Part shown: positions 7,151 to 49,282 of the stretch, piece by piece
Numbering within the stretch: the first letter of the stretch is position 1
How the letters are laid out: every line of letters begins with the position of its first letter
Assembly (NCBI GenBank): GCA_038245295.1
Contig: JBBRSP010000001.1
Span: 59,486-123,485 of the forward strand
Direction: 5' to 3'
From: Candidatus Binatia bacterium
Lineage (GTDB): Bacteria; Desulfobacterota; Binatia; HRBIN30
Length of the DNA: 64,000 nucleotides
Position numbers and translations under genes: made by a program
The notes under the pieces: generated by a model
The model's database searches: none
Seen by the model: only the letters and a program-made list of their open reading frames with translations
Told to the model about the DNA's origin: nothing

Positions 7151-7936
7151 TTGGCAATGCACAAGGCGCGCGCCGTTCTGCTGGGATTGATCGTACTGGT
7201 GGCGGGGACGACGGCCGCCAACGCCCTCGTGGCGACATTGGCCGCGAGTAAGGACAATTCGATCTTCCAAGAGTTTCCAACCCGCAGTGACGGGGCAGGG
7301 CCGGAATTCTACGCGGGAAACACGGCAGTCGGAAACCAGCGGCGGGCTCTGATCGCCTTCAACACGGCAAGCATCCCGCCCGGTTCCATGATCCTCAGTG
7401 TCGACCTGGCCTTGACCGTTACGGGCATCCCTCGTTCACCCGCCCCGGCCTCCGAAGTTGTCGAATTGCATCGCTTGCTAGCTGATTGGGGCGAGGCCGG
7501 TTCGAGCGGCGATGGCCAAGGCGACGCCGCCCAGACGGGTGATGCGACGTGGAATGACAGGTTCTTCATGACGGACACATGGGCGACTGCTGGTGGTGAC
7601 TTCTCGCCGACGGCCAGCGGCCAGCAGACGATCGGCGGGACGGGCGTCTACCATTGGATTTCGACGCCCGGCATGCGGTCGGACGTCCAGGGATGGGTGA
7701 ACAATCCGTCGAGCAATTTCGGTTGGCTGCTCCTCGGCGACGAGTCGATAAACAAGACGGCGAGAGCCTTCGCGTCGCGGACGCCAGACGAGGCAGGGGA
7801 TGAGCCCGTGTTGACCATCACATTCGTTCCGCCCCCGGGTGCCCCGACGCTCAGCACGGGGGGGATAATCGGACTCGCCATTGCGTTGGCTTTCGTCGGC
7901 ACGAACAGACTACGCCACCGGGCTGCGACCGTGTGA
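7151..7936 (+). CDS. Secreted protein with a C-terminal PEP-CTERM/IPTL-CTERM-like sorting tail.
   Basis: N-terminal signal peptide (AVLLGLIVLVAGTTAANA). The C-terminus VPPPGAPTLSTGGIIGLAIALAFVGTNRLRHR has the motif-TM-basic layout of a sorting signal. The RBS AAGGGG sits 7 nt before the ATG. Confidence 0.5.
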   Translation: MAMHKARAVLLGLIVLVAGTTAANALVATLAASKDNSIFQEFPTRSDGAGPEFYAGNTAVGNQRRALIAFNTASIPPGSMILSVDLALTVTGIPRSPAPASEVVELHRLLADWGEAGSSGDGQGDAAQTGDATWNDRFFMTDTWATAGGDFSPTASGQQTIGGTGVYHWISTPGMRSDVQGWVNNPSSNFGWLLLGDESINKTARAFASRTPDEAGDEPVLTITFVPPPGAPTLSTGGIIGLAIALAFVGTNRLRHRAATV

Positions 7937-8309
7937 CAGGCGCCGGCGCCGGGAAACAGGCCGCAGTATGCCGCGCCGAGGCGGGAATGGAGCGATAACG
8001 CAGGCCGCATAGAAGGTGCCCCGCTGCCAAACGCGCTAGGAAGCCCGTAGAGCCCCGATCGGCACCCAGGACGACCCTACCTAGCCACACAAACTCAACG
8101 TTTTTCGGCTTTTTCGCGAGAGGACCCTTGAAAAATAAGGGTTTTCTCTCCTGTCGACGCCTCCTCCGGTCCGAGCTCGGCGAAATCCCTGTTCCGCTCC
8201 CGGGGGACGACGTGTACCTCCAAGGTTTATCAAGAATCACCAGACCTACCGTCTATGCATTCCGTAGGGTTGCGGACGTACAGGCGTTCCAACTAAGTTC
8301 CGGCGCCCA

Positions 8310-11901: not shown

Positions 11902-12933
11902 TCAGCCGCGCAACAGCACATCGGCAGTCCAGCGCATGGCGCGGACCAGTCGCTCGAAGAGCGGCACGCGGTGCACCCAATGGCGCAGGAAGCGCAAAAT
12001 GCGGCGCTCGACGCGGAAGCGATCCCAGGGCTGGTTCTTGGCTACGGTAGTGCCGCCGCGTTGCGATGCTTCTTCTATTGGTCTGTACAGTGTGGCGCGC
12101 GGGAAGCCCCACGTCCCCAGATCGTCATCGTCCAGCTCGTCGAGAATGGCGCGAAGTCGAATCAAATTGTGCGGCGCGCTCACCAACTCGTCCGCCCACC
12201 GGTGCAGCGAATCGGTGACCGGCCGCGTCTGACGATTGACGGTGACAGGGTCGCCGAGTCCCTTGGTCTCGTGTTTCTGGGCGCCGTACTCGACGGTTCC
12301 GGCCTCGAACGCCAGGCCCAGGAAGTCGAAGACGCGGCGCATCTCCGTCTCGGGCTGCTGTACGAGCTCTTCGTACTGGACGCGGCAGATCGGCACCGCC
12401 TGTTGGCGTAGGAATTGCGCCATGGCCGGCACATAGCGACCCAGTATGGGGTTGAATCGTTCCGCTGCCTCGAAGTCTCCGTCGAAGAATGAGTTGGCGT
12501 ACGAGCAGAAAATCGCGCCCGGATGTCGCGTCAGCACGATGTAGCGTGCCTGCGGGTAAAGCTGGCTCAGGAAGGGGAGGATCAACGCGTTGGCCGGCGT
12601 CTTGTCGAGGAAGAAGCATTTGCCGCCGCCGCGCACGTCGAGCATTCGCCCATAGAGGGTATCGGCATAGGCCCGACATGCATCGAGGTAATCGGCTTTG
12701 CCACGCGGCAGATCAGCGACGAACTCGCGTACCGCCTGGGCCGCCTGCAAGTGATCAAATGGCGCCGCATCGACATTGTCGAAGTAACCGAGATGCGCCA
12801 ACGGCCCCAGGAGATGTGGTTCGGGACGACTGTAGATCTGCGAGTGTGAACCCAGCATTCGCATCAGCAACGTTGACCCGGAGCGCGGCGGACCGATCAC
12901 GAAGATCAACTGCGCCTGCCGCAACTCACTCAT
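11902..12933 (-). CDS. Sulfotransferase family protein (PAPS-dependent).
   Basis: 5'-PSB motif IGPPRSGSTLL and a 3'-PB-like motif RYIVLTRHPGAIFCS. The ATG at 12933 forms an ATGA overlap with the yajD stop. Confidence 0.75.
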   Translation of the reverse strand: MSELRQAQLIFVIGPPRSGSTLLMRMLGSHSQIYSRPEPHLLGPLAHLGYFDNVDAAPFDHLQAAQAVREFVADLPRGKADYLDACRAYADTLYGRMLDVRGGGKCFFLDKTPANALILPFLSQLYPQARYIVLTRHPGAIFCSYANSFFDGDFEAAERFNPILGRYVPAMAQFLRQQAVPICRVQYEELVQQPETEMRRVFDFLGLAFEAGTVEYGAQKHETKGLGDPVTVNRQTRPVTDSLHRWADELVSAPHNLIRLRAILDELDDDDLGTWGFPRATLYRPIEEASQRGGTTVAKNQPWDRFRVERRILRFLRHWVHRVPLFERLVRAMRWTADVLLRG

Positions 12934-13262
12934 TTCTTGCGCCTCGCCTCATCGATGTAGTCGGCGAGCAGGTTCTTCGAATGCTCAGCCTCGTGGCAGT
13001 AGACGCAAAGGTTCTCCCAGTTGCTGCCGTCGGGCGGGTTATAGTTGTGGTTGCCGTCGCGGTGATGCACGGTCAGCAGATGCAGCGTGTTGGCTTCGAA
13101 TTCCCGGGCGCAGCGGGCGCAGATCCAGCCGTAGAGAGCCAGAGAGCGCTCGCGGTAACCGGCGGCGCGCTGTTGCGCCGCGTCGCGCGCTGCGCGGACG
13201 ATGTCGGCACTGCTCCGGGGGGAGGTCGGCTGGCGGCGTTGTGCGGGACGAAAGCTACGCAT
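12930..13262 (-). CDS. yajD: YajD-like small HNH-nuclease-fold protein.
   Basis: Aligns along its length with E. coli YajD (…GYREKALKIYPWVCGRCSREF…LTVHH.D…NPEDGSNWE.LC.YCH..EH). Confidence 0.75.
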   Translation of the reverse strand: MRSFRPAQRRQPTSPRSSADIVRAARDAAQQRAAGYRERSLALYGWICARCAREFEANTLHLLTVHHRDGNHNYNPPDGSNWENLCVYCHEAEHSKNLLADYIDEARRKK

Positions 13263-16816: not shown

Positions 16817-19800
16817 TCATGGTGTGACGGCGTTGAACCATGTGCCGGTGTTCCTCCGCGCCGACGCCGTGTAGCTCGCTTCCCAGCAGGGTGGTCCATC
16901 GCTCTTCTGCAATTGAACGATGACCGCCGGTGCTTGATTTAGGAATTGTGTTGGGCTGAGCGGCACCGGCAGCGGTAACGCCAGCCCCTTGCCGACCATG
17001 ATGATCGATGCCTTGCCCGCGACACCGCTGTACAGTCGCGTCCGCAGGATCCCATCGGCTGCCTTGAGGCGATCGAGATAGCGGAATCCCGTCAATCTGG
17101 ATGTCGCCCCGCATGCCTTTGTGCCGCAGATCCGCGCCGCCGGGACGAAGAATTGCCCGACCAACAATGGCGCCGGCGCATCATCATAGATGCATAACGT
17201 GTATCCGGTCGATTCAAGCGGATTGCCGAATTCAGCGGTGTCCGTCGTGGCCCCACGGGTCCATTTCCATGTCATGGAGTTGCGGGTCGGGAGCGTGGCG
17301 TACTTGAGAGAAAAAGACGACTTGAGTGAAACCCGACATCCGACGATCGGTTCAGGTGGACATCGGAATGGAGTGCCGGTTGGGCTTGGGGTTTGGGTAG
17401 GCAATGGTGGTTCTATCTCCGTGACCGTGCCCGATGGACTCGCTGTGTGGGTGGGGCTGGGTGTTGCGGTATGGGTGCGTGTCGCTGTCGTGGTTGCGGT
17501 AACGGTCGGCGTCCGCGTTGCCGCTCCTGTAGAGGTTGGCGTCGCCGAAATTGTGAAGGTGGGTGTCGGTGTTGCCGGGGCTGCCTGCCCGCTGCCGGCG
17601 GAAAAGTGGGCGATAATTCGTTCGGCCGACAAAGCTTGTCCGTAGAAGGCGATCTCGTCTAGCTGGCCGAAACCATTGCTCCAGCCACCGCCAGCAGCGT
17701 AACCCATCTGCCAATGATCGCCCGCGGCCAGCGTGGTCACAGGCAATGGGGTGCCCTCCTCGACACCATTTACAAACAAGCGCACGAACCCGCCGTTGGC
17801 GGCTGTACCGACGAGATGGTAGGTCTGGCCGGGTGTAACCGTCCTCGAGCTGGTCACGATGAGTTCGGCTGTGGAGGTCAGGAATACGCGATGCTGGAAG
17901 CGCGCTTCGCTTCCGAACCGCTGGACCGTCAACTCCTGGACGTAGTTTCCGCCAGCATTCACACGCAACACGACAACTCGCGGAGCCATCGTTCCCGAGT
18001 CTGTTCCGCTCGGCTTGAACCACGCTTCTATCGTATAGGCAGCGGTGTCTGCCGTCTGGGGTGCGATGACGGCACCATTCGCTCCATCGACCGAGATCGA
18101 TTTGTCGCTCGTCGAGGTCAACAGGGATGGGAGACCCTTCCCGACGCCGGACCCGGAGTAGGCGGCGTGGAATCCACCGCCGCTCGAATCGAAGGCTATG
18201 GCACCCGACAGTTCCCCCAGATGGTAATAGCCTGTCGGGGAATCCGAGAGGACGGTTGCTGCGTAGTTCGGCCCCGCATAGGGTGTCGGCGTTGCAGTTG
18301 GTGTGTGGGTGCCGTCACGCGTCGGCGTCGGTTGCGGGTTCGGGAAGGTCAACTTCTCAAAGGGTGTCTTGTAGATCAGCAGGCGCGACCAGTCTGTATC
18401 GTAGAGGTAGAGGTTTCCTTCGCTATCGAAGAACGGGCTCCCCGACGCGAAGCCGGTGAAGTCGCCAAGCGCCAGTTGTGGCAGGGTGCTCGCCAGAGGC
18501 GCCGTGAAGAGCAACGGGTACCTGGTGGCGGCATACGGGTTATTCGGCAGAATCATGTATCCTTGGGGCGAGAAGGCCGGTTTGAGCGGGCTGATCAACG
18601 GATCTTGACTCGCGGCGGTTCCTTGCGTCGTGAAGCTTCCGCCTGTGCCGTAGACTCGGGTCGCATTGGGCGCGACCAGAGCCAATGTCCCCGTCGATGC
18701 CGGAAATGCACTCGCGTCGAACTCCAATAGCCGATGAGTCGATCCACCCTCACCACCATTGTCGGAGACGAAGAGATTGCCGCTCGCGTCGAGCGAGACA
18801 TAGTAAGGTACGCAAAGGGTATTCGCCGTGGGCGCAGAATCGTGACCGTTGCAACCGGAGGACGTTGGCGACGGTTGGCCAAGAATGACGTCGACGTAAG
18901 CGCCCGTCGATACGTTGCGCAGACCCTTGAGATTGACGACACGATAAACGCGGCTGTTTGTCGAGTCGGCAATCCAGACCTCGTCACCGTTTGGAGTCGC
19001 GGCGAAGTCGATAAAGTCAGCCCCTGCCGTGGTCATGAGTGTGCCCGGGAACCCGAGCACTGGATAGCCGGTGAAACCGGCGGCGGCATTCAAACCGATC
19101 GTGCGCGCCGGCTTGCACCCGCCACCCATACAATTGCCGAGCTGGCTGCTGAACACGAGAATCTCGTCCTTGGGGTTTTGCGTGTGCATGACCCACAGTT
19201 CGGTCCCGACGATTTGTGGAAACGCGAAGTAGTTCTGGAACGTTGCCGTGTACAAGTCGGTCTCGCCGAGGACGTCATCCGCTGCCATGTGCGTGGTCGC
19301 AAACGCCAGATCGAAGCCGTTCCAAATTAGAAGCCGATGCCCATCGGCGACGACTAGTTGATCGCCGTACAGGGCACCGCCAAATCCAAAACGAAGATCG
19401 TCGGGGCCGATGCCGGCTCGAGTCTTCGGGAAGACCTGCTGTGCACTCTGTAGCTGTGAACTGGGGCTCTGGCCGAACAGAGAGCGGCGGAACCGCAGCA
19501 GCTGGCCGGTATTCCCAGCCCATTTGTCCAAAGCCAGGAGGTCACCGCTCGGATCCGTCCCACTGCCGTATAGGACAGGCACCTGGGTGGTCGAGAGCTT
19601 GGTCAGAGAAGGGCTATCGAGATCGAAACGATCCAAATAGAAGCAGTCATTGCCAACCCACAATGCATGACTCACGGAATCGATGAACAGCTCTTGGGAA
19701 CGCGTGTAGTGTCCGCCGATGTCGCATGTGAGGTTGATCGGCAAAGCTCGGGCTGCGCTCATACCGGTTGTGAATCCGGGCCTGAACTCCAGTACGCGCG

Positions 19801-21115
19801 AGACCCCCGAAAAATCAGAGTCCGTGACATACAACCATCCGGTTTGCGAATCGAAAGTGACATCCGAAGGGAACGCCATTTTGTCGAGTGCTCGGGCCGT
19901 GCTCCCTTGCGACGTCGTGGTGCAATTCGGCTGACCGAGCACGACGTCCGCCGTTTGCTGAATGATGCCACCAATCCTGGGGAATCGAAGGACGCGAGCG
20001 TTGCCGGAGTCGGCAACCCACATACTCCCAGAGTTGTCGAAGGCGAGCCCGCCGACGGTTTCGAAATGCAAGGATTGGCAGGTGGCGCTGGCGCCGCGGT
20101 TCGCCTGGTTCGCCGAATAGTCGGCTTGGCCCCAGACCGCATCGGCGGTGGAGTCGGTATTGAATGGGTCGTCGAACCTGAGGACGCGATTGTTGTAGAG
20201 ATCCGTGACGTACAGAGCGCCTGCCGCGTCGACCTCCAAATTGGCCGCCATCACGGTTTCACCGATACTCACCTGGGTTGGCGGGATCAGGCAGAGACTC
20301 GTGTTCGATGCTGGGGCACGCGACGGTAGCAGCTGAGCTGTACCGTCGCCGTTGCAAGCGGAAACGTCCACCGCGCTGGGCTGACCGATGACCTTTTGGA
20401 TCTGGATTTCGGCATCTGGAGTACAAGCGCCGCCACCACAGTCTGAATCCGACATGCACGTCGTACCACTCACGGTGCCACCAGTGCAGTTTCCGATGTG
20501 ATCGAATGCGATGATTCGATTGTTGTTGGTATCGGCGATGTAGAGGCGGGTTGGCTGACCGGCGCGCGTGTCAAAAGCCAAGCCCCCGGGCCATTGCATG
20601 ACAGCTGCGGTCGTTTTGGCATAGGCGTTTTGGCCAAAATCCGGCTGGCCAAGAACAATGTCGGCCCAAAGATCGCCGCTGCTACCGCGTTGCGGGCCGT
20701 TGTCGAGCTGCGCCGTTATGCAGTCGGATACGGGGTCGTTTCCGGACGGTCGGTCGGCGACGACCCTGTAATAGTAGGTTGTACCGGGCGCGAGGCTCGA
20801 CGACGTACCGAAGCGGGCTCTATCTGTAGGCAGCTTGCCCGTGTCGCCGTAAGCGTTGGTGGCGCTAGACACATTGTATGTCGTAAACGTCGTGAAGGCC
20901 GACGAGGTGCTACGTTGAATTTGATATTGAGAGATGCCGGCTTGCGGTGCCCAACTTAGCGCGATTTCGATTGTCGTCGACCCGATGTGACGCAAGGCGA
21001 AGCTACCCGCGCCGCAAATTGCGCTCGCCGGCGCAGCAACGGAACCGGCGGCGATGCCGGCAGCCACGACTGCCATCGTCCACGCCTTTCGGATACCCCT
21101 CTCGCACCATCGCAT
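16817..21115 (-). CDS. Giant secreted multidomain protein: signal peptide, fibronectin-III, multiple NHL beta-propeller repeats, a LamG/ConA-like domain, Thr/Pro-rich linkers and a Cys-containing C-terminal domain.
   Basis: 1432 aa. Signal peptide …AAGIAAGSVAAPASA. Repeated …NNRIIAF/NNRVLRFD/NARVLRF/SRVYRV… NHL signatures. LDEIAFYGQALSAERIIAHF is LamG_3-like. Linkers PTPTRDGTHTPTATPTP and ATPTPTFTISATPTSTGAATRTPTVTATTTATRTHTATPSPTHTASPSGT. Confidence 0.7.
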   Translation of the reverse strand: MRWCERGIRKAWTMAVVAAGIAAGSVAAPASAICGAGSFALRHIGSTTIEIALSWAPQAGISQYQIQRSTSSAFTTFTTYNVSSATNAYGDTGKLPTDRARFGTSSSLAPGTTYYYRVVADRPSGNDPVSDCITAQLDNGPQRGSSGDLWADIVLGQPDFGQNAYAKTTAAVMQWPGGLAFDTRAGQPTRLYIADTNNNRIIAFDHIGNCTGGTVSGTTCMSDSDCGGGACTPDAEIQIQKVIGQPSAVDVSACNGDGTAQLLPSRAPASNTSLCLIPPTQVSIGETVMAANLEVDAAGALYVTDLYNNRVLRFDDPFNTDSTADAVWGQADYSANQANRGASATCQSLHFETVGGLAFDNSGSMWVADSGNARVLRFPRIGGIIQQTADVVLGQPNCTTTSQGSTARALDKMAFPSDVTFDSQTGWLYVTDSDFSGVSRVLEFRPGFTTGMSAARALPINLTCDIGGHYTRSQELFIDSVSHALWVGNDCFYLDRFDLDSPSLTKLSTTQVPVLYGSGTDPSGDLLALDKWAGNTGQLLRFRRSLFGQSPSSQLQSAQQVFPKTRAGIGPDDLRFGFGGALYGDQLVVADGHRLLIWNGFDLAFATTHMAADDVLGETDLYTATFQNYFAFPQIVGTELWVMHTQNPKDEILVFSSQLGNCMGGGCKPARTIGLNAAAGFTGYPVLGFPGTLMTTAGADFIDFAATPNGDEVWIADSTNSRVYRVVNLKGLRNVSTGAYVDVILGQPSPTSSGCNGHDSAPTANTLCVPYYVSLDASGNLFVSDNGGEGGSTHRLLEFDASAFPASTGTLALVAPNATRVYGTGGSFTTQGTAASQDPLISPLKPAFSPQGYMILPNNPYAATRYPLLFTAPLASTLPQLALGDFTGFASGSPFFDSEGNLYLYDTDWSRLLIYKTPFEKLTFPNPQPTPTRDGTHTPTATPTPYAGPNYAATVLSDSPTGYYHLGELSGAIAFDSSGGGFHAAYSGSGVGKGLPSLLTSTSDKSISVDGANGAVIAPQTADTAAYTIEAWFKPSGTDSGTMAPRVVVLRVNAGGNYVQELTVQRFGSEARFQHRVFLTSTAELIVTSSRTVTPGQTYHLVGTAANGGFVRLFVNGVEEGTPLPVTTLAAGDHWQMGYAAGGGWSNGFGQLDEIAFYGQALSAERIIAHFSAGSGQAAPATPTPTFTISATPTSTGAATRTPTVTATTTATRTHTATPSPTHTASPSGTVTEIEPPLPTQTPSPTGTPFRCPPEPIVGCRVSLKSSFSLKYATLPTRNSMTWKWTRGATTDTAEFGNPLESTGYTLCIYDDAPAPLLVGQFFVPAARICGTKACGATSRLTGFRYLDRLKAADGILRTRLYSGVAGKASIIMVGKGLALPLPVPLSPTQFLNQAPAVIVQLQKSDGPPCWEASYTASARRNTGTWFNAVTP

Positions 21116-21233: not shown

Positions 21234-22469
21234 TCAACCGCGTTCCAGCGCCGCGACGCATTCCACGTGTTCGGTCTGCGGCAAGAGGTCGAACGGCAGG
21301 AGGTTCGCGGTGCGGTAGCCGTGCTGGGCGAACCAATCGAGATCGCGCGCCAGGGTGGTGGGATCACAGGAGACGTAGGCGATACGTTTGGGCTCGGCCC
21401 GCAGGATCGCTTCGCGGGTGCGCTCGTCGGCGCCTTTGCGTGGTGGATTGAGGGTGATGATGTCGACGCTGCCGAGCAGGTCGAGCAACTTCGGTAACTC
21501 TACGCCGACGTCGCCGCAATAGAAACGCACATTGTGGAAGCCGTTGAGCTTGGTGTTGCGTTTGGCGTCTTGCACCGCCACCGGCGAGGCTTCGATGGCG
21601 AAGACGCGCTTCGCGGTGATGGCCAGCTGGAAACTCAGACCGCCGACACCGCAGTAGAGGTCGATCGCCGCCGACTCGGCGTCGGGCGCCGCCCACTTCG
21701 CCGCCGTCTCGTACAGGCGTCGTGCGACCGGCACATTGGCCTGCAGGAAGGCGCCGGGGTTGGTGATGAACTTGAACGAGCCGACACGTTCGGTGAGCGT
21801 CGGCTCGCCGGCAAGCTGAACATACTCCCTGCCAAGGATGACGTTGCCTGGATCGTCGTTGATGTTCTGCACGACGCCGGTGACGCGCGGCAAGGCGGCG
21901 ATGGCGCGTGCGAGTTGGCGTCCCTGCGGGATCGTGCGTTCGGCCGAGACGAGAATGACCTGCACCGACTTCGACCACGTGGCGGCGCGCACCACCACAT
22001 AACGTAACCAGCCGTGGCGCGTGCGCTCGTCGTAGGCCAGCACCTTGTGGTCATCGAGCACCGCGCCGAGACGGGTCAGTACGTCGCGGATCAGGGGATG
22101 ATGCACGGGGCACTCGCTGATGTCGCTCACCTGATGTGTGCCGGGTCGGTAGATGCCCAGCAATAGGTTGCGTCCGGCTCGCCGCACGACGAGTTTGGCC
22201 TGATTGCGATAGCCGAACGAATGCGGCGCGCCGACCACCTCCGGGATCTCGACATGGCGCAGAGACTCGTAGGCGCCGAAGGCGTCAACGACGCGCTGCT
22301 GCTTGAAGGCCATCTGCTCACGGTATGGCTTGCCGATCAGCGGACAACCGAAACAGCGCGGGTAGTGGGCGCAGGGTAGGGCGTTGGTAGCTGGTGTTGG
22401 AGGGCTCATGGGGGCGTGTGCTTGTAAGTTGCTGATAGCACACGCGCAAGAAGTGCGGACCGTTGCCAC
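21234..22469 (-). CDS. rlmD: 23S rRNA (uracil-C5)-methyltransferase, RlmD/RumA (TrmA) family.
   Basis: Cys cluster CAHYPRCFGCP, then DLYCGVGGLS (motif I), ITLNPPRKG and YVSCDPTTLARD. The start may be the downstream ATG (MSPPTP…). Confidence 0.8.
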   Translation of the reverse strand: MATVRTSCACAISNLQAHAPMSPPTPATNALPCAHYPRCFGCPLIGKPYREQMAFKQQRVVDAFGAYESLRHVEIPEVVGAPHSFGYRNQAKLVVRRAGRNLLLGIYRPGTHQVSDISECPVHHPLIRDVLTRLGAVLDDHKVLAYDERTRHGWLRYVVVRAATWSKSVQVILVSAERTIPQGRQLARAIAALPRVTGVVQNINDDPGNVILGREYVQLAGEPTLTERVGSFKFITNPGAFLQANVPVARRLYETAAKWAAPDAESAAIDLYCGVGGLSFQLAITAKRVFAIEASPVAVQDAKRNTKLNGFHNVRFYCGDVGVELPKLLDLLGSVDIITLNPPRKGADERTREAILRAEPKRIAYVSCDPTTLARDLDWFAQHGYRTANLLPFDLLPQTEHVECVAALERG

Positions 22470-22531
22470 GAATCAATCGACGCTGCTGCCGGTTGATTGC
22501 GTATCGGCGCCAACCCTGACAGCGTGCGCCG

Positions 22532-24397
22532 GTGCTCGCGCCGATCTTGTCTCTAGCGATCGTTGCCTTCTACGTTTGGAGCGTCTGGCGTTTGCTCCGC
22601 CATGAATCACGGGAGTTCCATCTCGTCCTCCTCGTGATCGTCATACTGGCCCTGGCGCTGCGTCTGGCCTATCTCGGCGACTATCCCCCCGGCCTCAATG
22701 AAGACGAAGTAAAGGGTCTGGAGCGCGGCCAGGTGGCACTCAACGAAGGCACCCTCTTTGGCCGCGGCGTCGAAGGGCCGATCCTCTTGAACGCCCTCTT
22801 CATGTCGCAGCTCTTGCCGCTGTTGGGTCCCGTGCGCTGGGCCGTGCGCGGCTACTCCTTTGTCGGCGGGATTCTCGCCTGCGCGGTGATCGCCGCGGTC
22901 GGACGCGCCATGCGGCTGGGCCGCGTCGCTTCCCTGGTGGGCGCCGCTCTGGTTGCCGTTTTGCCGGTTTTCAATTTCTACAGCCGTGTCGCGTGGGGCG
23001 GCGAGCTGACGTTCCATCAGGCGCTGCTGCTCGCGGCCCTAGCCCGTCTGATATGGCAAAATGGCAACCGCGGCGATGTTGTCGTGGGTGGCGTCGCCAG
23101 CGGTCTGCTGCTGTGGGACTACGCCGCCGGCCGCTCGATGCTCGCCATGCCGATTCTGGCAGCAGCCCTGGCAAGTGGCATGAACAGTTTACGCTGCCTG
23201 CTCATTCCCCTTGGTGGCCTCCTCGTCTGGAGCCCCTATCTAGCCGGGTTTTGGCTCTGGGTGCGCGATCAGTTCGGCGCCACACTCGATCCAGGCTACC
23301 ATGACTCGACGCTCACCACCGTGGCTCGCAAGTTCGTCGGGGCACTCGACGCACTGACACGACCACGCTCGCGGACCGGCTGGATGAGCATTCCAAGCGG
23401 CGCAACGTTTCCCTGGTTGGCTCTCGGATTAGCCCCCCTGGGCTTTGTGCGGAGCTGGCGTCATGCGGTGTTCTTGCTCGGCGGGTTCTGCCTCGGCCTG
23501 ACACCCAGCTTGCTCAGCGAAGGCACGGCGCCGAGCGCTCACCGCATGCTGATGGCCTACACCTTCATTCCATTGGCCATCGCTTGTGGAATCGATGCCG
23601 TGCCGCGGCCGCGGCTGCGCTGTTGGGCCGCTGTGTCGTGTGTTGCCGTGCTTGGCGTGCTGAGCGTGCGGTCCTTCTTCTCGGCAACATACTGGGACAA
23701 CGAGTCCCAGGCCGTTTTCCCGCGCGACCGCACCCTCCTCGCCGAGACCGCCGAGCGCAACCCGGCGGTGCGCAAGATTGTCGACGGGGGCATCAAGTAT
23801 CATTGGGGTTTGCGCCGCCTCAGTGCCAAGGATTCGGAGTTGCTATCAGTCGAAAACTGGCTGCCGCCAACGGGTGTGCCGCTGCAGTACGTGATGGGAC
23901 CGCACTCCAGCGCGCTGCGCGCCTTTTACCTCGATCTCTTTGGCAGCGAGCGCATGACGATGATCGGCCAGGGCTTTCTGTTGCGTCTCGAAGCCGCCGA
24001 TTGGAGGTGGATCGAAGCGCACGGATGGACCTACCGCGCGACTTGCGAGGCTACCGTGCGTCAAATCCATGTGCCGACGTTGCATCAACGGGGCATTGGC
24101 TTCCGCGATCTCGCTTGCCCACACGGGGCGGATCACGAGTGGCGCGCCCGCTGGAACGGCCCGCGTGAGTGGGTCGCCGTGACCTTCTCGGGCGACCTCG
24201 GCGTTGAAGTGAATGAACGGCTGGTGGCCGAAAAACACGGGGAAGAGCAGGAGCAAACCTTTGAGCTCGTCCCAGGCGACGACGTTCGCCTTCACTTGCA
24301 CACCGAGGGCCTGTGGCCCGATGTCAAGCTGTTCGAAATGTCGCCGCAAACCCGCCGCCTGCCGCGCTGGGAATCGGCTACGCCGATCGATCCCTAG
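22532..24397 (+). CDS. GT-C fold membrane glycosyltransferase (ArnT/PMT-like).
   Basis: 621 aa, many TM segments. The first periplasmic loop carries YLGDYPPGLNEDEVKG, a DE motif of the kind PMT/ArnT enzymes use for catalysis. GTG start. Confidence 0.55.
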   Translation: MLAPILSLAIVAFYVWSVWRLLRHESREFHLVLLVIVILALALRLAYLGDYPPGLNEDEVKGLERGQVALNEGTLFGRGVEGPILLNALFMSQLLPLLGPVRWAVRGYSFVGGILACAVIAAVGRAMRLGRVASLVGAALVAVLPVFNFYSRVAWGGELTFHQALLLAALARLIWQNGNRGDVVVGGVASGLLLWDYAAGRSMLAMPILAAALASGMNSLRCLLIPLGGLLVWSPYLAGFWLWVRDQFGATLDPGYHDSTLTTVARKFVGALDALTRPRSRTGWMSIPSGATFPWLALGLAPLGFVRSWRHAVFLLGGFCLGLTPSLLSEGTAPSAHRMLMAYTFIPLAIACGIDAVPRPRLRCWAAVSCVAVLGVLSVRSFFSATYWDNESQAVFPRDRTLLAETAERNPAVRKIVDGGIKYHWGLRRLSAKDSELLSVENWLPPTGVPLQYVMGPHSSALRAFYLDLFGSERMTMIGQGFLLRLEAADWRWIEAHGWTYRATCEATVRQIHVPTLHQRGIGFRDLACPHGADHEWRARWNGPREWVAVTFSGDLGVEVNERLVAEKHGEEQEQTFELVPGDDVRLHLHTEGLWPDVKLFEMSPQTRRLPRWESATPIDP

Positions 24398-24400
24398 CCT

Positions 24401-25315
24401 TCAACCGCCAAGCAGGTCGCGCGCCAGGCTCCGGCTGCCGCGACGCGCCAGTGTCTTATGGAGGAAGGCCGCGATCTCGCGCGGTTTCGGGTGGCGTAAC
24501 ATCTCGACGAGCACCTGCCGCGTGTAGCGGCGCACCGAGCGCCGGTGGCAGGCCAAGGCCGTCGGGTCGTTGTCGTACTCGGGGAGAATTTCGTGGTCGA
24601 AGTGTGCATGTCCGTCGGTGCCCGCAACCAGCGTGGCGCTTTCGCGTGGGCCGCGACGCCACGCGGTCGCGGCGATGTAACGGATGGCGAGTCCGGCACG
24701 CAGCTGATCCGACGGATTCGCTGGCGAGCCGTGAATCATTCGGAGGTCGTGCAAGGACGCTTGTCCGGCACGCAGTTGCATGGCCACGGTGTCGCGTTCG
24801 TTGATGTGCGTATCCAACGATTGGCCGCGCAGCAGCGCGTTGTGCTTGTCGAAGTTTACCCGATGGCGCTGCTCGGGCGCCCGATGTGAGCCGGGGACTA
24901 CCGAAACGCAGCCGTTGGCCGTGGTGCTGTCCGTCAGGGCCACCCAGGCGGTGAGGACTTCGTTGCCGGCGAACTTCCAATAGACCGAATCCTGGTGCCA
25001 CGGCACGTGTTGAGGATCGCCCCCTGCCTTGATGAAGAACGTTGAGCGCCAGACGAGCACATCGGGGCCGAGCAGATCGCTGGCGGCACCAATGAGTGCC
25101 GGGTGACGCACCAAATCGGCGGCCCACTTGAGATAGAGATGCGGCTTGTGTCGGTGTGCCGGAGACAGCGGCAAGCCATTGGCGGCAAGCAACGAACGAA
25201 ACGCGGCTTGGGTTGCGGCGAGAGTCGCGCCGCTCAGGACTTCGATCGGATAGAAATAACCGTCGGCGCGATACTGGGCGAGGGCGTCATCGGCGAGGCG
25301 GCGCGGTACCGCCAT
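24401..25315 (-). CDS. Phytanoyl-CoA dioxygenase (PhyH) family Fe(II)/2-oxoglutarate oxygenase.
   Basis: HQDSVYW…H facial triad and PhyH-like length and layout. The track begins at a TTG at 25321; the ATG at 25315 overlaps the stop of the upstream cupin gene by 1 nt. Confidence 0.7.
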   Translation of the reverse strand: MAVPRRLADDALAQYRADGYFYPIEVLSGATLAATQAAFRSLLAANGLPLSPAHRHKPHLYLKWAADLVRHPALIGAASDLLGPDVLVWRSTFFIKAGGDPQHVPWHQDSVYWKFAGNEVLTAWVALTDSTTANGCVSVVPGSHRAPEQRHRVNFDKHNALLRGQSLDTHINERDTVAMQLRAGQASLHDLRMIHGSPANPSDQLRAGLAIRYIAATAWRRGPRESATLVAGTDGHAHFDHEILPEYDNDPTALACHRRSVRRYTRQVLVEMLRHPKPREIAAFLHKTLARRGSRSLARDLLGG

Positions 25316-25836
25316 CACCAACCGCGCGACATGTCGAACTTGAACGGGATGCGGTCATTGTCGAGGGGCAAACGCAGCTTGTCCGGATCGGTGTGGTCGA
25401 ACGGTACGGTCTTGAAGTTGACGGCGATGACGTCGCTGCTGCCGAGATTACGATCGGCATGCCAGATTCCCGGCGGGATATTCATGATGCGGCGTCGGTA
25501 GGATGACAGGACAACCCGCGCCACCAACCCGAGCGTCGGCGATTGTGGGCGCTCGTCGTACAACACCAACTCCATCTCGCCGAACATTACGAAATAGCGA
25601 TCTTCGGTCTTCTCGTGCAGAGACCAGCCCTTGATCATGCCGGGACGGATCGTAAACGCGTAGGCGAACGTGCATGGCTCGGACAGCAATCCCCAGCGTA
25701 AATCAAAGATCTCGAAGACCTCGCCGCGTGCATCGCCGTGGGTTTGCACGTCGTGGAAATGCACGCCATGCGGCAGTGGGGTGATGGGTTCTCCCGCTGA
25801 CGTCACCGTCTGGCGATCCTTGCTTGGAGCATTCAT
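25315..25836 (-). CDS. RmlC-like cupin (dTDP-4-dehydrorhamnose 3,5-epimerase family sugar-nucleotide epimerase/isomerase).
   Basis: The internal ATG at 25836 forms an ATGA overlap with the GT2 stop. GMIKGWSLHEKTEDRYFVMFGEMELVLYDERPQSPTLG, IPPGIWHAD and FDHTDPD follow the RmlC pattern (G.LRGLH…K.V…G.V.DV.VD.R..SPTFG / IP.GFAHGF / .nDP). Confidence 0.6.
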   Translation of the reverse strand: MNAPSKDRQTVTSAGEPITPLPHGVHFHDVQTHGDARGEVFEIFDLRWGLLSEPCTFAYAFTIRPGMIKGWSLHEKTEDRYFVMFGEMELVLYDERPQSPTLGLVARVVLSSYRRRIMNIPPGIWHADRNLGSSDVIAVNFKTVPFDHTDPDKLRLPLDNDRIPFKFDMSRGW

Positions 25837-26696
25837 GCGATTGGCGTGCCCTCTTGCGGGCGCGTTGTAAGCCGCTGGTACCAGAAGCGCAAGAATTTTG
25901 GACCCGACCGTAAGCCGAACAACAGGAAGTCGCGCCACTGGCGTTGGCGTATTTCCCATGAGCGGTGCCGGTCACCCGAGCGCATGCGCAGCGATGCTAC
26001 CCATCTGGGGTCTTCGAGCAAAGCCAAATATTTCGCCTGCGGCGCCTCGCGGCTGAGGTCGTAGTGCCGGTCCCAGTGCAGCGCATAAAAACGCAAGACG
26101 GTCAGATGATCGATGTACGCGGATGGTTGCTCGGACGTCCGCACCCGATTGTAGAATTCGCGATCGCCGAAGCGCACCAGTTGATCGTTCCAATATCCGA
26201 CGGCGGCGAAAACATCGCGCCGATGCACGCAGTTCACCGATCCCATGAACCAGTTGCGCAGAAAGCGCTGGGCGAAAGGGCCGCGCCAGTCGAAGGCGAA
26301 GAAGTACGGATCGAGAGTGTCGGGCACCTGCACGGGGCACGAGCGCATCGCCACCAGACTCAGACGACGGTTTTGCAGCGCCGCTACCGCCGACTCCAGA
26401 TGATCGGTAAACCACAGATCGTCATCGTTGCAGTAGGCGATGATTGGCGCGTTGGTCTCGGCGAGCACTTGGTTGCGATGCGCGTAGCCGAATCCCCGAC
26501 CCTTCGAGAATCGATAGAAGCGCAGACGCTCGTCGTCGAAGCGGCGCACCTGTTGCTCGGTTGCGTCGTCACAGCCGTCGCCGATGACATGCAGCGTGAA
26601 GTGTTTGTAGGTCTGCCGCAACACCGACTCGATTGCATACCCGACGGTGTGCGGACGCTTGAACGTGGGTAGGATGATATCGACGGCGTCGCTCAT
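25833..26696 (-). CDS. Family 2 glycosyltransferase.
   Basis: ILPTFKRP…DGCDD (DxD-type) architecture of GT-A fold GT2 enzymes. The ATG at 26696 forms an ATGA overlap with the moaC stop. Confidence 0.75.
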
Positions 26697-27199
26697 TTAT
26701 TGGACCGGAATGCTCCGCTACGGCCGCCGCTCTTCTCCATCAATCTGACCTCGGTGATGACCATCCCACGATCGGCCGCCTTGCACATGTCGTAGATCGT
26801 CAGTGCGGCGACACTGACGGCCGTCAATGCTTCCATTTCAACGCCCGTGCGGCCGCTCACCTTCACCGTTGCCTCGATCTGCAGACGACCACGCCCCGCG
26901 ACCGTGAAGTCGATATTGGCTACCTGAATGGGGAGGGGGTGACACAAGGGGATCAGATCGGACGTGCGCTTGGCCGCCTGAATGCCGGCGATGCGCGCCA
27001 CGGCCAATACTTCGCCTTTGGCGATCTTGCCGCTCTGGATCAGGAGCAACGTGGCCGGTTGCATGACCACGACGCAGCGCGCGACGGCGACACGTTCGGT
27101 GATCGGCTTGTCTCCGACATCGACCATGCGGGCGCGGCCCTGCGTGTCGATGTGAGAGAGGGCGGGGGGTTTTGTCTGACGTCCGGGTCGCGTCGGCAT
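26693..27199 (-). CDS. moaC: Cyclic pyranopterin monophosphate synthase MoaC.
   Basis: Near-colinear with E. coli MoaC (HMVDV…[21 protein letters not shown]…[22 protein letters not shown]…SGG.SG). Trimmed to the ATG at 27199. Confidence 0.85.
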
Positions 27200-27336
27200 A
27201 CGGCGTGTATAGCGAAACCTCGCGGTGAGACGCGACCTCCGGCCGCGATAGCTGGCGAAGGATTCGCAGCCCGCCGCATGCGAGGCTGGACCTACCTGGG
27301 TTGCCGAAGCCAACGTTCAACCCTACCTTGGCGCGT

Positions 27337-28278
27337 ATGCCACACCACAAGCTGATCATCATTGGTTCCGGACCCTCTGGCCTGACGGCGGCGCTTTATG
27401 CGGCGCGCGCCGACTTGGCTCCCGTCGTCATCGAGGGATCGCAGCCCGGTGGTCAGCTGACCATTACCACCGAGGTCGAGAACTATCCCGGCTTCCCGGA
27501 AGGGTTGCAGGGGCCCGAGATGATGGACCGCTTTCGCGCTCAGGCCGAGCGTTTCGGGACGCAATACATCTACGGCGACGTCTCGAAGGTCGAGTTGGCG
27601 CAGCGGCCGTTCAAGCTGCTGGTTGGCAAGGACACATTTACCTGCGACGCCCTGATCATCTCGACCGGCGCTTCCGCGAAACTCCTTGGACTGGAATCGG
27701 AGAAACTGTTGATGGGGCATGGCGTGTCGGCCTGCGCCACCTGCGACGGTTTCTTTTTCAAAGGCAAAGAGCTCGTCGTGGTAGGTGGCGGTGACACGGC
27801 GGTCGAGGAAGCACTCTACCTCACGAAGTTCGCCAGCAAGGTGACGATCGTTCACCGGCGCGACGAACTGCGTGCATCGAAGATCATGCGCGACCGAGCC
27901 CTCAAGAATGACAAGGTCGCTTTTGTCTGGGACTCGATCGTCGAAGAGATCCTGGGTGCCGCCGACAAGACAGGTGTCACCGGCGTGCGCCTGCGCAACG
28001 TCAAGACCAACACGGTCAGCGAGTTCAAGACCGATGGTGTCTTCATGGCCATCGGCCATCAGCCCAATACACAGCTCTTTGTCGGCCAACTCGACATGGA
28101 CGAGACCGGCTACCTGCTTACCCAGGCCGGCGGTACGGCAACCAACGTCGAAGGCGTGTTTGCTTGTGGCGACGTGCGCGATCACGTTTACCGCCAGGCC
28201 ATTACGGCCGCCGGCTCGGGCTGTATGGCGGCAATCGATGCGGAGCGCTGGCTGGAAACAAAAAAGAGTGAAGAGTAA
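27337..28278 (+). CDS. trxB: Thioredoxin-disulfide reductase.
   Basis: IIIGSGPSGLTAALYAAR (FAD), active-site CATCDG and GGGDTAVEEALYL (NADPH). Confidence 0.9.
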   Translation: MPHHKLIIIGSGPSGLTAALYAARADLAPVVIEGSQPGGQLTITTEVENYPGFPEGLQGPEMMDRFRAQAERFGTQYIYGDVSKVELAQRPFKLLVGKDTFTCDALIISTGASAKLLGLESEKLLMGHGVSACATCDGFFFKGKELVVVGGGDTAVEEALYLTKFASKVTIVHRRDELRASKIMRDRALKNDKVAFVWDSIVEEILGAADKTGVTGVRLRNVKTNTVSEFKTDGVFMAIGHQPNTQLFVGQLDMDETGYLLTQAGGTATNVEGVFACGDVRDHVYRQAITAAGSGCMAAIDAERWLETKKSEE

Positions 28279-43819: not shown

Positions 43820-44929
43820 CTACTTTGCCGTCGGGGTGATTGCCGGTGGACGTGTGCGGCTGACGATGTTTAGAATTTCGTCCGGTCCGAGGACACGGGG
43901 GTAGACCTGCACGTCGCGCATGATGCTACGGGCGCTGCCGGCGCCGTTCGGAACATCGGAGCCAAACAGCCACGGTGTGCCGTTCGGCACCTGCAACTCG
44001 CCGTTGTACTCACTGCTCGGGAGCGGCAGGCCGTCAATAAAAAGCGTCGTCACGCCATCTCCCCACTGGGCGGCCACATGGTGCCAATCGCCTACCTTCC
44101 AGCCTGAAATTCCCGTGCTGCCGCCGCTTTCGTGGCCTGTGTTGTCGCAGAAGAGGAAGCGTAGGTACTGGCCGTTCTTGAAGATCTCGATGCGGTTCTC
44201 GAAGGTTCCGGTCTTCCACTGGGCGAAGCCGGCATTGGTATCAGCCTCGCCGATCCACTCGGGCAGTATCCAGAAGACGACGCTGCCCGACTGCCCGGTG
44301 AAGTTCTCGGGGTTCGGCACGGCGAAACGCGCATCAGCTCCGAAGTGGGCTCCAGCCTCGGTGACCGTGACGTCGTGCTCAATGATCGGGGAGTTGTCAC
44401 CGGCAGCCTGTGCTTGATCCGGTGCCGTCGTCTTGTTGAAACCGAAGGAGATCGCCGGAGCATGGGCGTCGTCCGTGTCGGCTTTTGGACCCGGCACCGA
44501 GCCTGCCGGTGATTGGTTTGCCTGTTGCTCCGCCCGTTCCTGGGCTTCCGATCCGGCGCGCGCGATTTCGGAATCGGCACGCCGCTGCGGGCGAGCCTTG
44601 GGGTCGGTGGTTGCCCCGCTGGTGCCGGGCTCGCTGTCATCAGCGGCGGCGAGGGGTTCGCGTTCCAGACCTTGGCGGGCGCGTTGCGCGGCGGCGGCAA
44701 TCGCCGGCCGGTCCGCGAAGCGCTCATCGCCACCTTCGCTGCCGTCAAAGCGCCCGGAACGACGGCTTGCGGCGCCGCGCGCCTCCCGCCGTCCGGCCGC
44801 GGAAGCGGATACGGCCGAATCACTTTCGCCGTCGTCGTCGGCAAGATCGGGGGACGTCGGACGCAAGAGCCACAGCCCGACCATCAGTAGGATGGCCAGA
44901 GACACTGCAATCAATACCGAGCGCTGCAT
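43820..44929 (-). CDS. N-terminally anchored protein with a long acidic/Ala-rich linker and a C-terminal LamG/concanavalin-A-like domain.
   Basis: TM helix (VLIAVSLAILLMVGLWLL), ~170 aa of low complexity, then a ~180-aa beta-sandwich-like region (…WKVGDWHHVAAQWGDGVTTLFIDG…). It lies 7 nt upstream of rsmH. Confidence 0.5.
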   Translation of the reverse strand: MQRSVLIAVSLAILLMVGLWLLRPTSPDLADDDGESDSAVSASAAGRREARGAASRRSGRFDGSEGGDERFADRPAIAAAAQRARQGLEREPLAAADDSEPGTSGATTDPKARPQRRADSEIARAGSEAQERAEQQANQSPAGSVPGPKADTDDAHAPAISFGFNKTTAPDQAQAAGDNSPIIEHDVTVTEAGAHFGADARFAVPNPENFTGQSGSVVFWILPEWIGEADTNAGFAQWKTGTFENRIEIFKNGQYLRFLFCDNTGHESGGSTGISGWKVGDWHHVAAQWGDGVTTLFIDGLPLPSSEYNGELQVPNGTPWLFGSDVPNGAGSARSIMRDVQVYPRVLGPDEILNIVSRTRPPAITPTAK

Positions 44930-45935: not shown

Positions 45936-45938
45936 TCA

Positions 45939-46586
45939 ATGTCGGCCGGCGGGTTCGAAGCCGAGTACTACGAACAGAACTATCCCAACTACGCGCGGCA
46001 AAACCCGACGCGTAAGCTCAAGCACTATGAAGAGGCGGTGCGCCGCCACTTGCCGCCGGGCGAGCCGATCCGTGTCTACGATCTCGGCTGTGCCTTCGGG
46101 GCGTATCTCTCAGCAATCGATCCGCAATGGCAGGCCTACGGGGCTGACGTAAGTCATTTCGCCGTCGCCGAAGCGAAGAAGCGCCTGCCGCGCGGACATT
46201 TCGACGTCATCGCCGAACGCAGTATTCCGTTCGACGAGAAGTTTCATGCGATTACGGCATGGGACGTGATCGAACACATTCCCGATCTGGATCGGGTTGC
46301 CGCCGAGGTCGAGGCGCATCTGGTCGAGCGCGGCGCCTTCGTGTTCGTTGTTCCGGTTTATGACGGACCGCTCGGGCCGGTGGTCATGGCGCTCGACAAA
46401 GATCCGACCCACATCCATAAAACCGCGCGTCGCTTCTGGGTCGACTGGGCCGCCCGCCACTTCGAAGTGATCGAGTGGTGGGGAATCTTCCGTTACCTCA
46501 TGCCGGGCGGCTACTACGCCCACGTTCCGACACGTGCTTTACGTTCGATCGCGCCGGCAATCCTCGTCGTTGCGCGCCGCCGCTGA
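45939..46586 (+). CDS. Class I SAM-dependent methyltransferase.
   Basis: VYDLGCAFGAYL (motif I) and …ITAWDVIEHIPD; 3-nt gap after the GT2 gene. Confidence 0.7.
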   Translation: MSAGGFEAEYYEQNYPNYARQNPTRKLKHYEEAVRRHLPPGEPIRVYDLGCAFGAYLSAIDPQWQAYGADVSHFAVAEAKKRLPRGHFDVIAERSIPFDEKFHAITAWDVIEHIPDLDRVAAEVEAHLVERGAFVFVVPVYDGPLGPVVMALDKDPTHIHKTARRFWVDWAARHFEVIEWWGIFRYLMPGGYYAHVPTRALRSIAPAILVVARRR

Positions 46587-46595
46587 ACGCCCGTT

Positions 46596-49259: not shown

Positions 49260-49282
49260 CGTCTGTGTCGACTCCTCGTCCC

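Follow-up and report, generated by a model that had tools for sequence, protein, structure and literature searches.

Why would a gene of the molybdopterin pathway be joined to genes for sugar tailoring? In the 64-kb stretch of Candidatus Binatia DNA analyzed here (the window), moaC is the first gene of a minus-strand unit that continues with genes for a GT2 glycosyltransferase, an RmlC-superfamily cupin, and a PhyH-family Fe(II)/2-oxoglutarate oxygenase. The first-pass annotation of this DNA raised the possibility that moaC is moonlighting or regulated together with the sugar-tailoring cassette. The data discussed below point to another answer: it is likely that moaC encodes the ordinary housekeeping cyclic pyranopterin monophosphate (cPMP) synthase of its lineage, and that an accessory glycan-tailoring block of ~4.3 kb has come to lie beside it by insertion or rearrangement. 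The pairing of moaC and the cassette, seen in this one lineage, appears to reflect reshuffling of the genome rather than a new pathway.

The four genes were described as being chained by overlapping stop and start codons, and all three junctions are confirmed in the sequence. The moaC stop (TGA, 26695–26693) and the GT2 start (ATG, 26696–26694) overlap in an ATGA, and the same motif joins the GT2 stop (TGA, 25835–25833) to the cupin start (ATG, 25836–25834). At the third junction, TGATG, the cupin stop (TGA, 25317–25315) and the PhyH start (ATG, 25315–25313) have one base in common; GTG at 25318 and TTG at 25321 are alternative PhyH starts. Overlaps of 1 or 4 nt are found in nine of the 30 co-directional neighboring gene pairs in the window. 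They are thus generic in this DNA and argue for co-transcription, not for shared function. A terminator scan found nine candidates compared with 5.5 ± 2.7 in shuffles, none of them at the moaC/GT2 junction. From the 4-, 4-, and 1-nt overlaps together with the absent terminator signal, we infer a single transcript across moaC-GT2-cupin-PhyH. The presumed promoter region of the four-gene unit is the 137-bp gap that separates the divergently oriented moaC and trxB (27200–27336), in which an Rfam scan found neither a Moco riboswitch nor any other RNA family. A scan with a sigma-70 model, from which the promoter types of the host phylum may differ, returned no sites across 21–28.4 kb.

MoaC (26693–27199, minus strand; 168 aa) is bona fide, as the first-pass annotation held. 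It matches PF01967 at 192.9 bits (E = 3e-57; cutoff 27) and passes the cutoffs of the TIGR00581 equivalog (211.4 vs 141.5 bits) and of NF006870 (234 vs 162 bits). The catalytic and substrate-binding residues of E. coli MoaC are K51, H77, E112, E114, D128, and K131. On the basis of a phmmer alignment to PDB entries 4pyd/1ekr, the window protein keeps all of these as well as K67 (E. coli numbering), and overall identity to the E. coli protein is 55.6% over 153 aa (E = 3e-46). The start at ATG 27199 agrees with the homologues and with E. coli MoaC; one public gene call has a shorter, 144-aa form. It had also been noted that moaA, moaD, and moaE are not nearby. This holds for the entire window: Pfam scans of ~47 ORFs detected none of the three, and tblastn searches of the window with E. 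coli MoaA, MoaB, MoaD, and MoaE gave a best E of 0.07.

The gene order in relatives bears directly on the question. Four independent Binatia-like loci have sequence downstream of moaC (L085, L086, L088, which is NCBI "Candidatus Binatia," and L175), and their MoaC proteins are 75–78% identical to that of the window. In all four, an aroA-his-trxB|moaC neighborhood is followed directly by rlmD, with a 4-nt moaC/rlmD overlap in three cases, and GT2, cupin, and PhyH genes are absent from between moaC and rlmD in each. The trxB gene for thioredoxin reductase, divergent from moaC in the window (27337–28278, plus strand; PF07992 at 2e-52), has counterparts of 77–81% identity with the same placement and divergent orientation in L086, L088, L089, and L175. 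In the window, rlmD (21234–22409, minus strand), encoding a rumA-type 23S rRNA U1939 C5-methyltransferase (TIGR00479, 299 bits vs a cutoff of 183.55), is separated from moaC by a gap of ~4.3 kb that holds GT2-cupin-PhyH and a convergent gene for a predicted GT-C membrane glycosyltransferase. The conserved housekeeping frame consists of aroA-hisD-hisB-hisH-hisA-hisF, divergent trxB, and then moaC-rlmD. Synteny with the relatives reaches orf811-HNH-sulfotransferase.

What is conserved in this clade is a moaC that stands alone. As the arrangement that would speak against a link, the first-pass annotation had named a moaC that, in related genomes, ends a moa operon and has an unrelated gene downstream. 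The unrelated neighbor is found (rlmD) and the moa operon is not, but the outcome agrees with that expectation in spirit. The direct passage from moaC to rlmD in relatives, often with the same 4-nt overlap, and the presence of the cassette without moaC at 70 other loci (see below) speak against the proposed functional or regulatory link.

At its rlmD side, the block carries what looks like a rearrangement scar. A relic of the GT2 3′ end, 57 nt long (22405–22461, minus strand; direct repeat D2), abuts the rlmD start codon. When the 161 nt upstream of rlmD were compared with the whole window by blastn, the best non-self match was the GT2 3′ end (25865–25904; E = 1e-4), with the next match at 0.21. 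The local alignment score of the relic is 25, vs 8.9 ± 1.4 (maximum 15) for shuffles, and its translation, GPHFLRVCYQQLTSTRPHE, was aligned with an 18-residue segment of the GT2 C-terminus. Apart from this relic, no meaningful terminal direct or inverted repeats flank the block. It contains no tRNAs, integrase, or transposase as signs of a mobile element, and its GC3 (0.75–0.77) is native-like.

What does the block encode? The GT2 protein (25833–26696, minus strand; 287 aa) matches PF00535 at 68 bits (E = 1e-18; cutoff 23.3). Its DDD motif, D91–D93, is invariant in the family alignment, and together with the GT-A fold matches these data uphold the glycosyltransferase assignment. The top Foldseek matches of the AF2 model (pLDDT 85.8) are the WrtF fucosyltransferase, SpsA, heparosan synthase, TarP, and RmlT (E ~1e-13 to 1e-10), and the model resembles soluble GT-A enzymes whose donors are of the dTDP, TDP-Rha, or GDP-L-Fuc type; polyprenyl-phosphate GT2s (GtrB, DPMS) are absent from these top matches. 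Weak NCBIfam matches (TuaG, WcaA, and PglI) all score far below the equivalog cutoffs. The 261 homologues come mostly from soil metagenomes, with a best non-self identity of 64%, and those with a source name are labeled Vicinamibacteria or Terriglobia.

The next gene (25315–25836, minus strand; 173 aa) had been taken to encode an RmlC-like epimerase. Membership in the superfamily stands, while identity as RmlC does not. The protein barely exceeds the PF00908 cutoff (28.1 vs 27 bits), scores 28.3 bits on PF14667 (cutoff 28.7), and reaches only 19.9 bits on the RmlC equivalog TIGR01221 (cutoff 155.75). Among PDB entries, 3ejk, "dTDP sugar isomerase," matches best (1.7e-11), and RmlC entries score ~0.01. 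We know of no activity assigned to 3ejk, a structural-genomics entry, and literature searches for 3EJK found nothing useful. H74 corresponds to His63 of E. coli RfbC (the RGLH His) and occupies an invariant column in the subfamily, and Lys73 of RfbC is replaced by Arg. In an alignment-dependent comparison at 26% identity, Tyr133 (QYK) is replaced by Phe (NFK), and the cupin ends before the S-x-K-D segment, such that the Asp170 tail is absent. A tblastn search of the window with E. coli RfbC gave no match at 1e-6, and homologues of rmlA, rmlB, and rmlD (RfbA, RfbB, and RfbD) are found neither in the window nor in most of the GT2-orthologue loci. The start at 25836 is preferred over a longer ORF from 25959, as it fits the conserved N-termini of the homologues and a public gene call. 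The likeness of the N-terminus, MNAPSKDRQ, to that of L085 RlmD, MSAPDKDRR, was considered as a recombination relic and rejected, since the motif is conserved across the N-termini of the cupin subfamily.

The last gene of the unit (24401–25315, minus strand; 304 aa) encodes a PhyH-family Fe(II)/2-oxoglutarate enzyme, as originally assigned, with a PF05721 score of 106.4 bits (E = 3e-30; cutoff 22). The best PDB match is 6zyk (1.7e-40), followed by SnoK, CytC3, SyrB2, SnoN, and EvdO2; in the literature library that was searched, no paper cites 6ZYK or 6ZYL. Alignment to 6zyk places the facial triad at H107-x-D109 and H195 and the 2-oxoglutarate-binding Arg at R206. Because the motif is HxD, the protein is classed by sequence as an oxygenase and not as an HxA/G halogenase.

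Convergent with the PhyH gene, its stop codon 3 bp from that of PhyH, lies a gene for a 621-aa membrane protein (22532–24397, plus strand) that belongs to the block splitting moaC from rlmD. The protein has no Pfam (including PMT_2) or NCBIfam match, and hhalign of its family against a PMT_2 protein from the window gave no signal (probability 0.2). Foldseek searches with the AF2 model (pLDDT 92.5) returned STT3/OST, AftD, AglB, ArnT, Pmt4, and PglB at E = 3e-6 to 1e-4, plus PA14 domains. The TM-scores to GT-C folds are modest (0.35–0.48), and a GT-C glycosyltransferase fold followed by a C-terminal PA14-like beta-sandwich is predicted. In the family of 33 members, source names are few and are Candidatus Binatia in three of four (all but one); one source names a member ArnT-like. 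D58 and E59 are invariant in the family alignment and would lie in the first extracytoplasmic loop, after the predicted first two helices.

The cassette is also found elsewhere, and there moaC is missing. Orthologous GT2 genes (at least 48% identity) define 70 loci, 53 of which have at least 600 bp of upstream sequence. A cupin gene is present in 47 of the 70, and in 20 the GT2 orthologue is adjoined by a PhyH gene 45–51% identical to that of the window. MoaC is near GT2 at none of these loci, nor at any of the 166 loci with any GT2-like match, and the order moaC-GT2-cupin-PhyH is conserved in none of the four relatives and none of the 70 loci. Where a label exists, it is Acidobacteriota for most loci, and one locus comes from a Binatia MAG. 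In one lineage (L126/L127), the GT2-cupin-PhyH trio is embedded in the his operon, flanked by hisD and hisB; in L011, another Binatia MAG, GT2-cupin occupies a low-GC3 island that also contains fragments of GT2 pseudogenes. Collectively, GT2 and the RmlC-superfamily cupin form a recurrent, uncharacterized module at no fewer than 70 loci, often with PhyH, GFO/IDH/MocA oxidoreductase, or radical-SAM genes. Literature searches on clusters of PhyH, cupin, and glycosyltransferase genes found nothing useful.

How do these data bear on a functional coupling, in which MoaC moonlights or provides GT2, cupin, and PhyH with a pterin- or cPMP-type substrate, or in which control of the cassette has been purposely joined to that of Moco synthesis? 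The tight overlaps, which leave moaC and GT2 without space for an intervening terminator, favor it, as does the lack of any other moa gene within 64 kb. However, the linkage is absent in every relative with downstream sequence (4/4) and at every GT2-orthologue locus (70/70), and in the relatives moaC is equally tightly overlapped with the gene of an unrelated rRNA methyltransferase. Moreover, MoaC is fully canonical, its stand-alone state is conserved in the clade, and no Moco riboswitch is present. Functional coupling is on these grounds very improbable. It would be extremely improbable that the cassette is hard-wired to moaC in a non-neutral way, be it through a glycosylated or hydroxylated pterin made from a cPMP- or pterin-derived molecule, through expression purposely tied to Moco demand, or, in a weaker version, with the widespread GT2-cupin-PhyH module, whose cupin lacks the RmlC Tyr and Asp, performing new sugar-tailoring chemistry. 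Another scenario retains the gene order and gives up the shared transcript: the cassette would be transcribed separately, starting at a promoter located inside the 3′ portion of moaC, with the overlaps reflecting packing and no co-expression. The 4-nt stop/start overlap leaves no intergenic space, and the terminator scan gave no signal above shuffles; we consider such separate transcription rather unlikely.

The direction of the change also has to be considered, as the cassette could be ancestral between moaC and rlmD and have been deleted in the sister lineage, with the window keeping the old state. Judged by MoaC, RlmD, TrxB, and HisF identities, the window diverges further than any other member of the Binatia-like set and branches outside the four relatives, and one loss in the sister clade is therefore as parsimonious as one gain here. 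The native-like codon composition of the block also favors this scenario. Yet the exact 4-nt moaC/rlmD overlap in three relatives would be hard to recreate by deletion, and the cassette occurs in many unrelated contexts, including another position in the same his neighborhood. In addition, the best GT2 matches (61–64%) are of the Acidobacteriota type, compared with 53% for the one other Binatia copy, the best cupin match (62%) is in an Actinomycetota MAG, and the GT2 3′-end relic points to rearrangement in the lineage of the window itself. An ancestral cassette is thus decidedly unlikely.

According to the preferred reading, GT2-cupin-PhyH and the convergent GT-C glycosyltransferase gene most likely arrived between moaC and rlmD by insertion and rearrangement. 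The GT2 start codon lies across the moaC stop, which leaves no space for a terminator. Transcription of the cassette therefore probably begins at the divergent moaC/trxB promoter, and its translation would be coupled to that of moaC. This coupling would be an outcome of position and not of shared chemistry, and the cassette is most likely an uncharacterized envelope-glycan tailoring module that is co-transcribed with moaC by accident of position. If co-transcribed, its expression is tied to that of moaC, and a regulatory consequence is possible. The cassette probably decorates an envelope glycoconjugate. In such a pathway, the cupin would epimerize or isomerize an NDP-4-keto-6-deoxyhexose-type donor through a non-RmlC variant mechanism, and GT2 would move the sugar onto an acceptor on the cytoplasmic side. 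Hydroxylation of either the sugar or its acceptor would fall to PhyH, and the GT-C/PA14 protein may work from the periplasm. A hydroxylated or epimerized sugar decoration, the alternative offered by the first-pass annotation, is a plausible, putative product.

The main lesson of the locus is one of caution. When start/stop overlaps are generic (30% of the co-directional pairs here) and the neighborhood is not conserved, finding genes overlapped and in one operon in a single genome is weak evidence for a common function. The locus also provides an example of a translationally coupled pair of housekeeping genes being split by an accessory cassette, with a scar left behind. The module of GT2 and RmlC-superfamily cupin could be a target for glycan-tailoring enzymology.

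Comparison with known systems places each part of the locus. The MoaC protein resembles that of E. coli in identity, in its scores above the TIGR00581 and NF006870 cutoffs, and in all seven residues checked; it differs in that its gene lies outside any moaABCDE operon, stand-alone and divergent from trxB as in the relatives. With SpsA-, WrtF-, RmlT-, and TarP-type GT2s, the window GT2 has the GT-A fold and the DxD motif in common, whereas its family is set apart by a conserved C-terminal helix of its own, RSGPKFxRFWYQR. The cupin shares the superfamily and the invariant His63 equivalent with RmlC, the C-terminal cupin of Cap5F/WbjC, and 3ejk, and its gene adjoins that of a glycosyltransferase, the usual arrangement for cupins that tailor sugar nucleotides; relative to RmlC, it has Phe for Tyr133, lacks the Asp170 segment, and has no rmlA, rmlB, or rmlD nearby. 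PhyH has PF05721 in common with 6zyk, SnoK/SnoN, EvdO1/O2, and SyrB2/CytC3, which act on glycoside or tethered substrates, and carries the HxD…H motif and the Arg. Finally, the 621-aa protein resembles ArnT, PglB/STT3, PMT, and AftD in the fold of its multi-helix membrane domain, and it differs from these known GT-Cs in lacking a Pfam PMT_2 match, in its added C-terminal PA14-like domain, and in belonging to a family of only 33 members.

Four minus-strand genes, moaC, GT2, a cupin gene and PhyH, had been proposed to form a chain of overlapping stops and starts, and reading the minus strand (24330-27420) reproduced its coordinates and confirmed both ATGA overlaps and the single 1-nt overlap. 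The moaC frame runs from ATG 27199 to a TGA (26695-26693) that overlaps the GT2 ATG at 26696, the GT2 stop (25835-25833) overlaps the cupin ATG at 25836, and the cupin stop (25317-25315) has one base in common with the PhyH ATG at 25315 (TGATG). An identical metagenomic contig has publicly available gene calls, and these set the GT2, cupin and PhyH boundaries at the same positions. For moaC, one public call (NCBI) begins at the internal ATG 27127 (144 aa). Because the LSHID...GRAR segment preceding this codon is conserved in homologues and in E. coli MoaC, the start at ATG 27199 (168 aa) is favoured. Of the 30 co-directional gene pairs within the window, 9 overlap by 1 or 4 nt. Such overlaps make co-transcription probable and represent tight packing, not shared function.

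MoaC is canonical (Pfam MoaC, 3e-57; tblastn, 55.6% identity to E. coli MoaC, E = 3e-46). It scores above equivalog cutoffs and retains K51, K67, H77, E112, E114, D128 and K131, which bears out its description as a bona fide MoaC. As was also stated, moaA, moaD and moaE are missing nearby: Pfam scans of ~47 ORFs revealed no other moa gene in the 64 kb, and tblastn of E. coli MoaA, MoaB, MoaD and MoaE against the window gave nothing below E = 0.07. No riboswitch was found.

Upstream of moaC lie the divergent trxB (27337-28278, plus strand) and then hisF-hisA-hisH-hisB-hisD-aroA. Downstream, PhyH is followed by a convergent 621-aa membrane ORF (22532-24397, plus strand) and an rlmD-type methyltransferase gene (21234-22409, minus strand). 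Only 3 bp separate the ends of PhyH and the 621-aa gene (24397-24401), and no terminator-like structure occurs there; their transcripts would have to overlap or end inside the opposing gene. The nearest MoaC homologues are 75-78% identical, one of them labelled Candidatus Binatia by NCBI; as named homologues of the 621-aa protein mostly bear this label too, a Binatia-like MAG is very likely the source of the window. Contexts were obtained for five MoaC relatives and confirmed by tblastn with the window proteins. The aroA-hisD-hisB-hisH-hisA-hisF frame with divergent trxB and moaC is common to the relatives with a recovered upstream flank, except L085, where the upstream neighbourhood differs (the L175 sequence extends only to trxB). 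Two relative contigs stop at moaC. In all four relatives with downstream sequence (L085, L086, L088 and L175) rlmD is the next gene, without GT2, cupin or PhyH in between, and synteny extends further, through an ORF of 811-834 aa and an HNH gene to a sulfotransferase gene, as at 11.9-15.7 kb of the window. Hence, stand-alone moaC is the conserved state of the clade. Tight coupling of moaC to its downstream gene is also conserved, the relatives' partner being an unrelated rRNA methyltransferase gene; in L085, L088 and L175 the two genes share 4 nt. As a separate observation, the HNH endonuclease and sulfotransferase genes (11902-13262) overlap by 4 nt, an odd pairing whose adjacency recurs in L085 and L175.

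Relative to the moaC-rlmD junction of these relatives, the window carries ~4.3 kb extra (22410-26692). In this block the minus-strand genes GT2, cupin and PhyH are accompanied by the plus-strand 621-aa gene, and a new divergent spacer of 122 bp precedes rlmD. A relic of the GT2 3′ end, 57 nt long, lies directly before the rlmD ATG. When the rlmD-upstream region was searched by unbiased blastn against the window as a whole, the strongest match other than itself was the GT2 3′ end (E = 1e-4; next 0.21), and the local alignment scores 25 versus 8.9 ± 1.4 for shuffles. The relic translation, GPHFLRVCYQQLTSTRPHE, aligns with an 18-residue stretch of GT2, and the match covers the gene-specific tail as well as the family motif. 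This similarity indicates that a GT2 3′ end was formerly next to rlmD and that further rearrangement produced the present gene order. A search for mobile-element signatures revealed no integrase, tRNA or terminal repeats, and the GC3 of the block is native-like. Gain of the block is favoured over its loss from the relatives because moaC and rlmD overlap by exactly 4 nt in three of them and because the cassette has many other contexts and cross-phylum best matches; the window is nevertheless the most divergent member of the set, so polarity is not formally settled.

Other variation surrounds rlmD. L175 (5124-8971) has two tandem 621-aa GT-C/PA14 paralogues (~40% identity) downstream of rlmD, oriented as moaC, while the window has a single inverted copy upstream, which suggests local inversion or translocation in a variable GT-C region. 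At 16817-21115, a gene for a secreted NHL/Laminin_G_3 protein of 1432 aa, with linkers rich in Thr and Pro, has lower GC3 than its neighbours (0.69 versus 0.75-0.80). It is missing at the corresponding L085 position and so may have been inserted downstream of rlmD as a second event specific to this lineage.

The same conclusion is reached from the cassette side. The GT2 family gave 261 matches, the best non-self ones at 61-64% identity, and, where homologues have a named source, the label is Vicinamibacteria or Terriglobia. Scanning genome and metagenome collections with a 26-member GT2 alignment gave 160 loci, which were pooled with look-up loci. Orthologous GT2 (at least 48% identity) occurs at 70 loci, 53 of them with at least 600 bp upstream; MoaC matches none of the 70, and none of the 166 loci with any GT2-like match. 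An adjacent RmlC-superfamily cupin is present at 47 of the 70 and PhyH (39-51% identical to that of the window) at 20. Further recurrent partners are a GFO/IDH/MocA oxidoreductase and a larger GT2 plus radical-SAM genes; a PMT_2-type GT-C was seen once. A more distant relative (L126:6546-11163, also L127) has the trio in the same orientation inside its his operon, with hisD on one side and hisB on the other; within the aroA-his neighbourhood, the cassette has thus either inserted at another site or moved to it. In L011, another Binatia MAG, GT2-cupin sits in a low-GC3 island near gap-tpiA-secG. Three short GT2 fragments on both strands (7886-8182), 2 kb upstream of the intact pair, where GC3 is below that of the remaining contig, are pseudogene debris, suggesting repeated rearrangement around the cassette. 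Given these varying placements, the cassette is a mobile accessory module with freely varying flanks.

Collectively, the moaC-cassette linkage is non-conserved from either side and MoaC is canonical. The functional or regulatory link raised in the first-pass annotation is therefore not upheld, and a functional connection between MoaC and a glycan is very unlikely. The four-gene chain was observed correctly, but its explanation is ordinary: the cassette would be co-transcribed from the moaC/trxB promoter merely through its landing site. Its products probably tailor an envelope glycoconjugate, with the cupin modifying a keto-sugar nucleotide, GT2 transferring the modified sugar, PhyH hydroxylating and the GT-C protein possibly acting in the periplasm. 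What retains interest is the recurrent, uncharacterised GT2-cupin-PhyH module and the rearrangement scar. Elsewhere in the window, a glycosylation island (45141-53720) interleaves three small GT2 genes (45141-45935, 49283-50035 and 52983-53720) with genes for two very large GT-C proteins of PMT_2 type (46596-49415, 939 aa; 50126-52912, 928 aa, with fused NHL repeats), near a Laminin_G_3 protein (43820-44929); similar PMT_2, Laminin_G_3 and GT2 genes recur in L175.

Comparison with known systems qualifies the "RmlC-like epimerase" label. The cupin belongs to the RmlC superfamily and the equivalent of His63 in E. coli RfbC is invariant, but Tyr133 is replaced by Phe, the Asp170 tail is absent and TIGR01221 scores 19.9 against a cutoff of 155.75. 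Its Pfam matches are borderline (dTDP_sugar_isom and Polysacc_synt_C, ~28 bits each), the best PDB match (3ejk) is uncharacterised, and rmlA, rmlB and rmlD are absent from the window; it is not a canonical RmlC. In Actinomycetota and Alphaproteobacteria, the nearest members of its subfamily (47-62% identity) neighbour GT2s of other types. Since cupins beside orthologous GT2s are only ~30-35% identical to it, the cassette is mosaic. PhyH (Pfam, 3e-30) has the H107-x-D109...H195 triad and R206 and is closest to PDB 6zyk (1.7e-40), followed by SnoK, SnoN, EvdO, SyrB2 and CytC3; the HxD motif marks it as an oxygenase, not a halogenase. The model of GT2 (Glycos_transf_2, 1e-18; pLDDT 85.8) matches soluble GT-A enzymes such as WrtF (GDP-L-Fuc), SpsA (dTDP complex), RmlT (TDP-Rha) and TarP. 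The 621-aa protein, three of whose four named homologues are labelled Candidatus Binatia by NCBI, has invariant D58 and E59 and a C-terminal PA14-like domain, and its model (pLDDT 92.5) matches the GT-C enzymes STT3, AftD, AglB, ArnT, Pmt4 and PglB.
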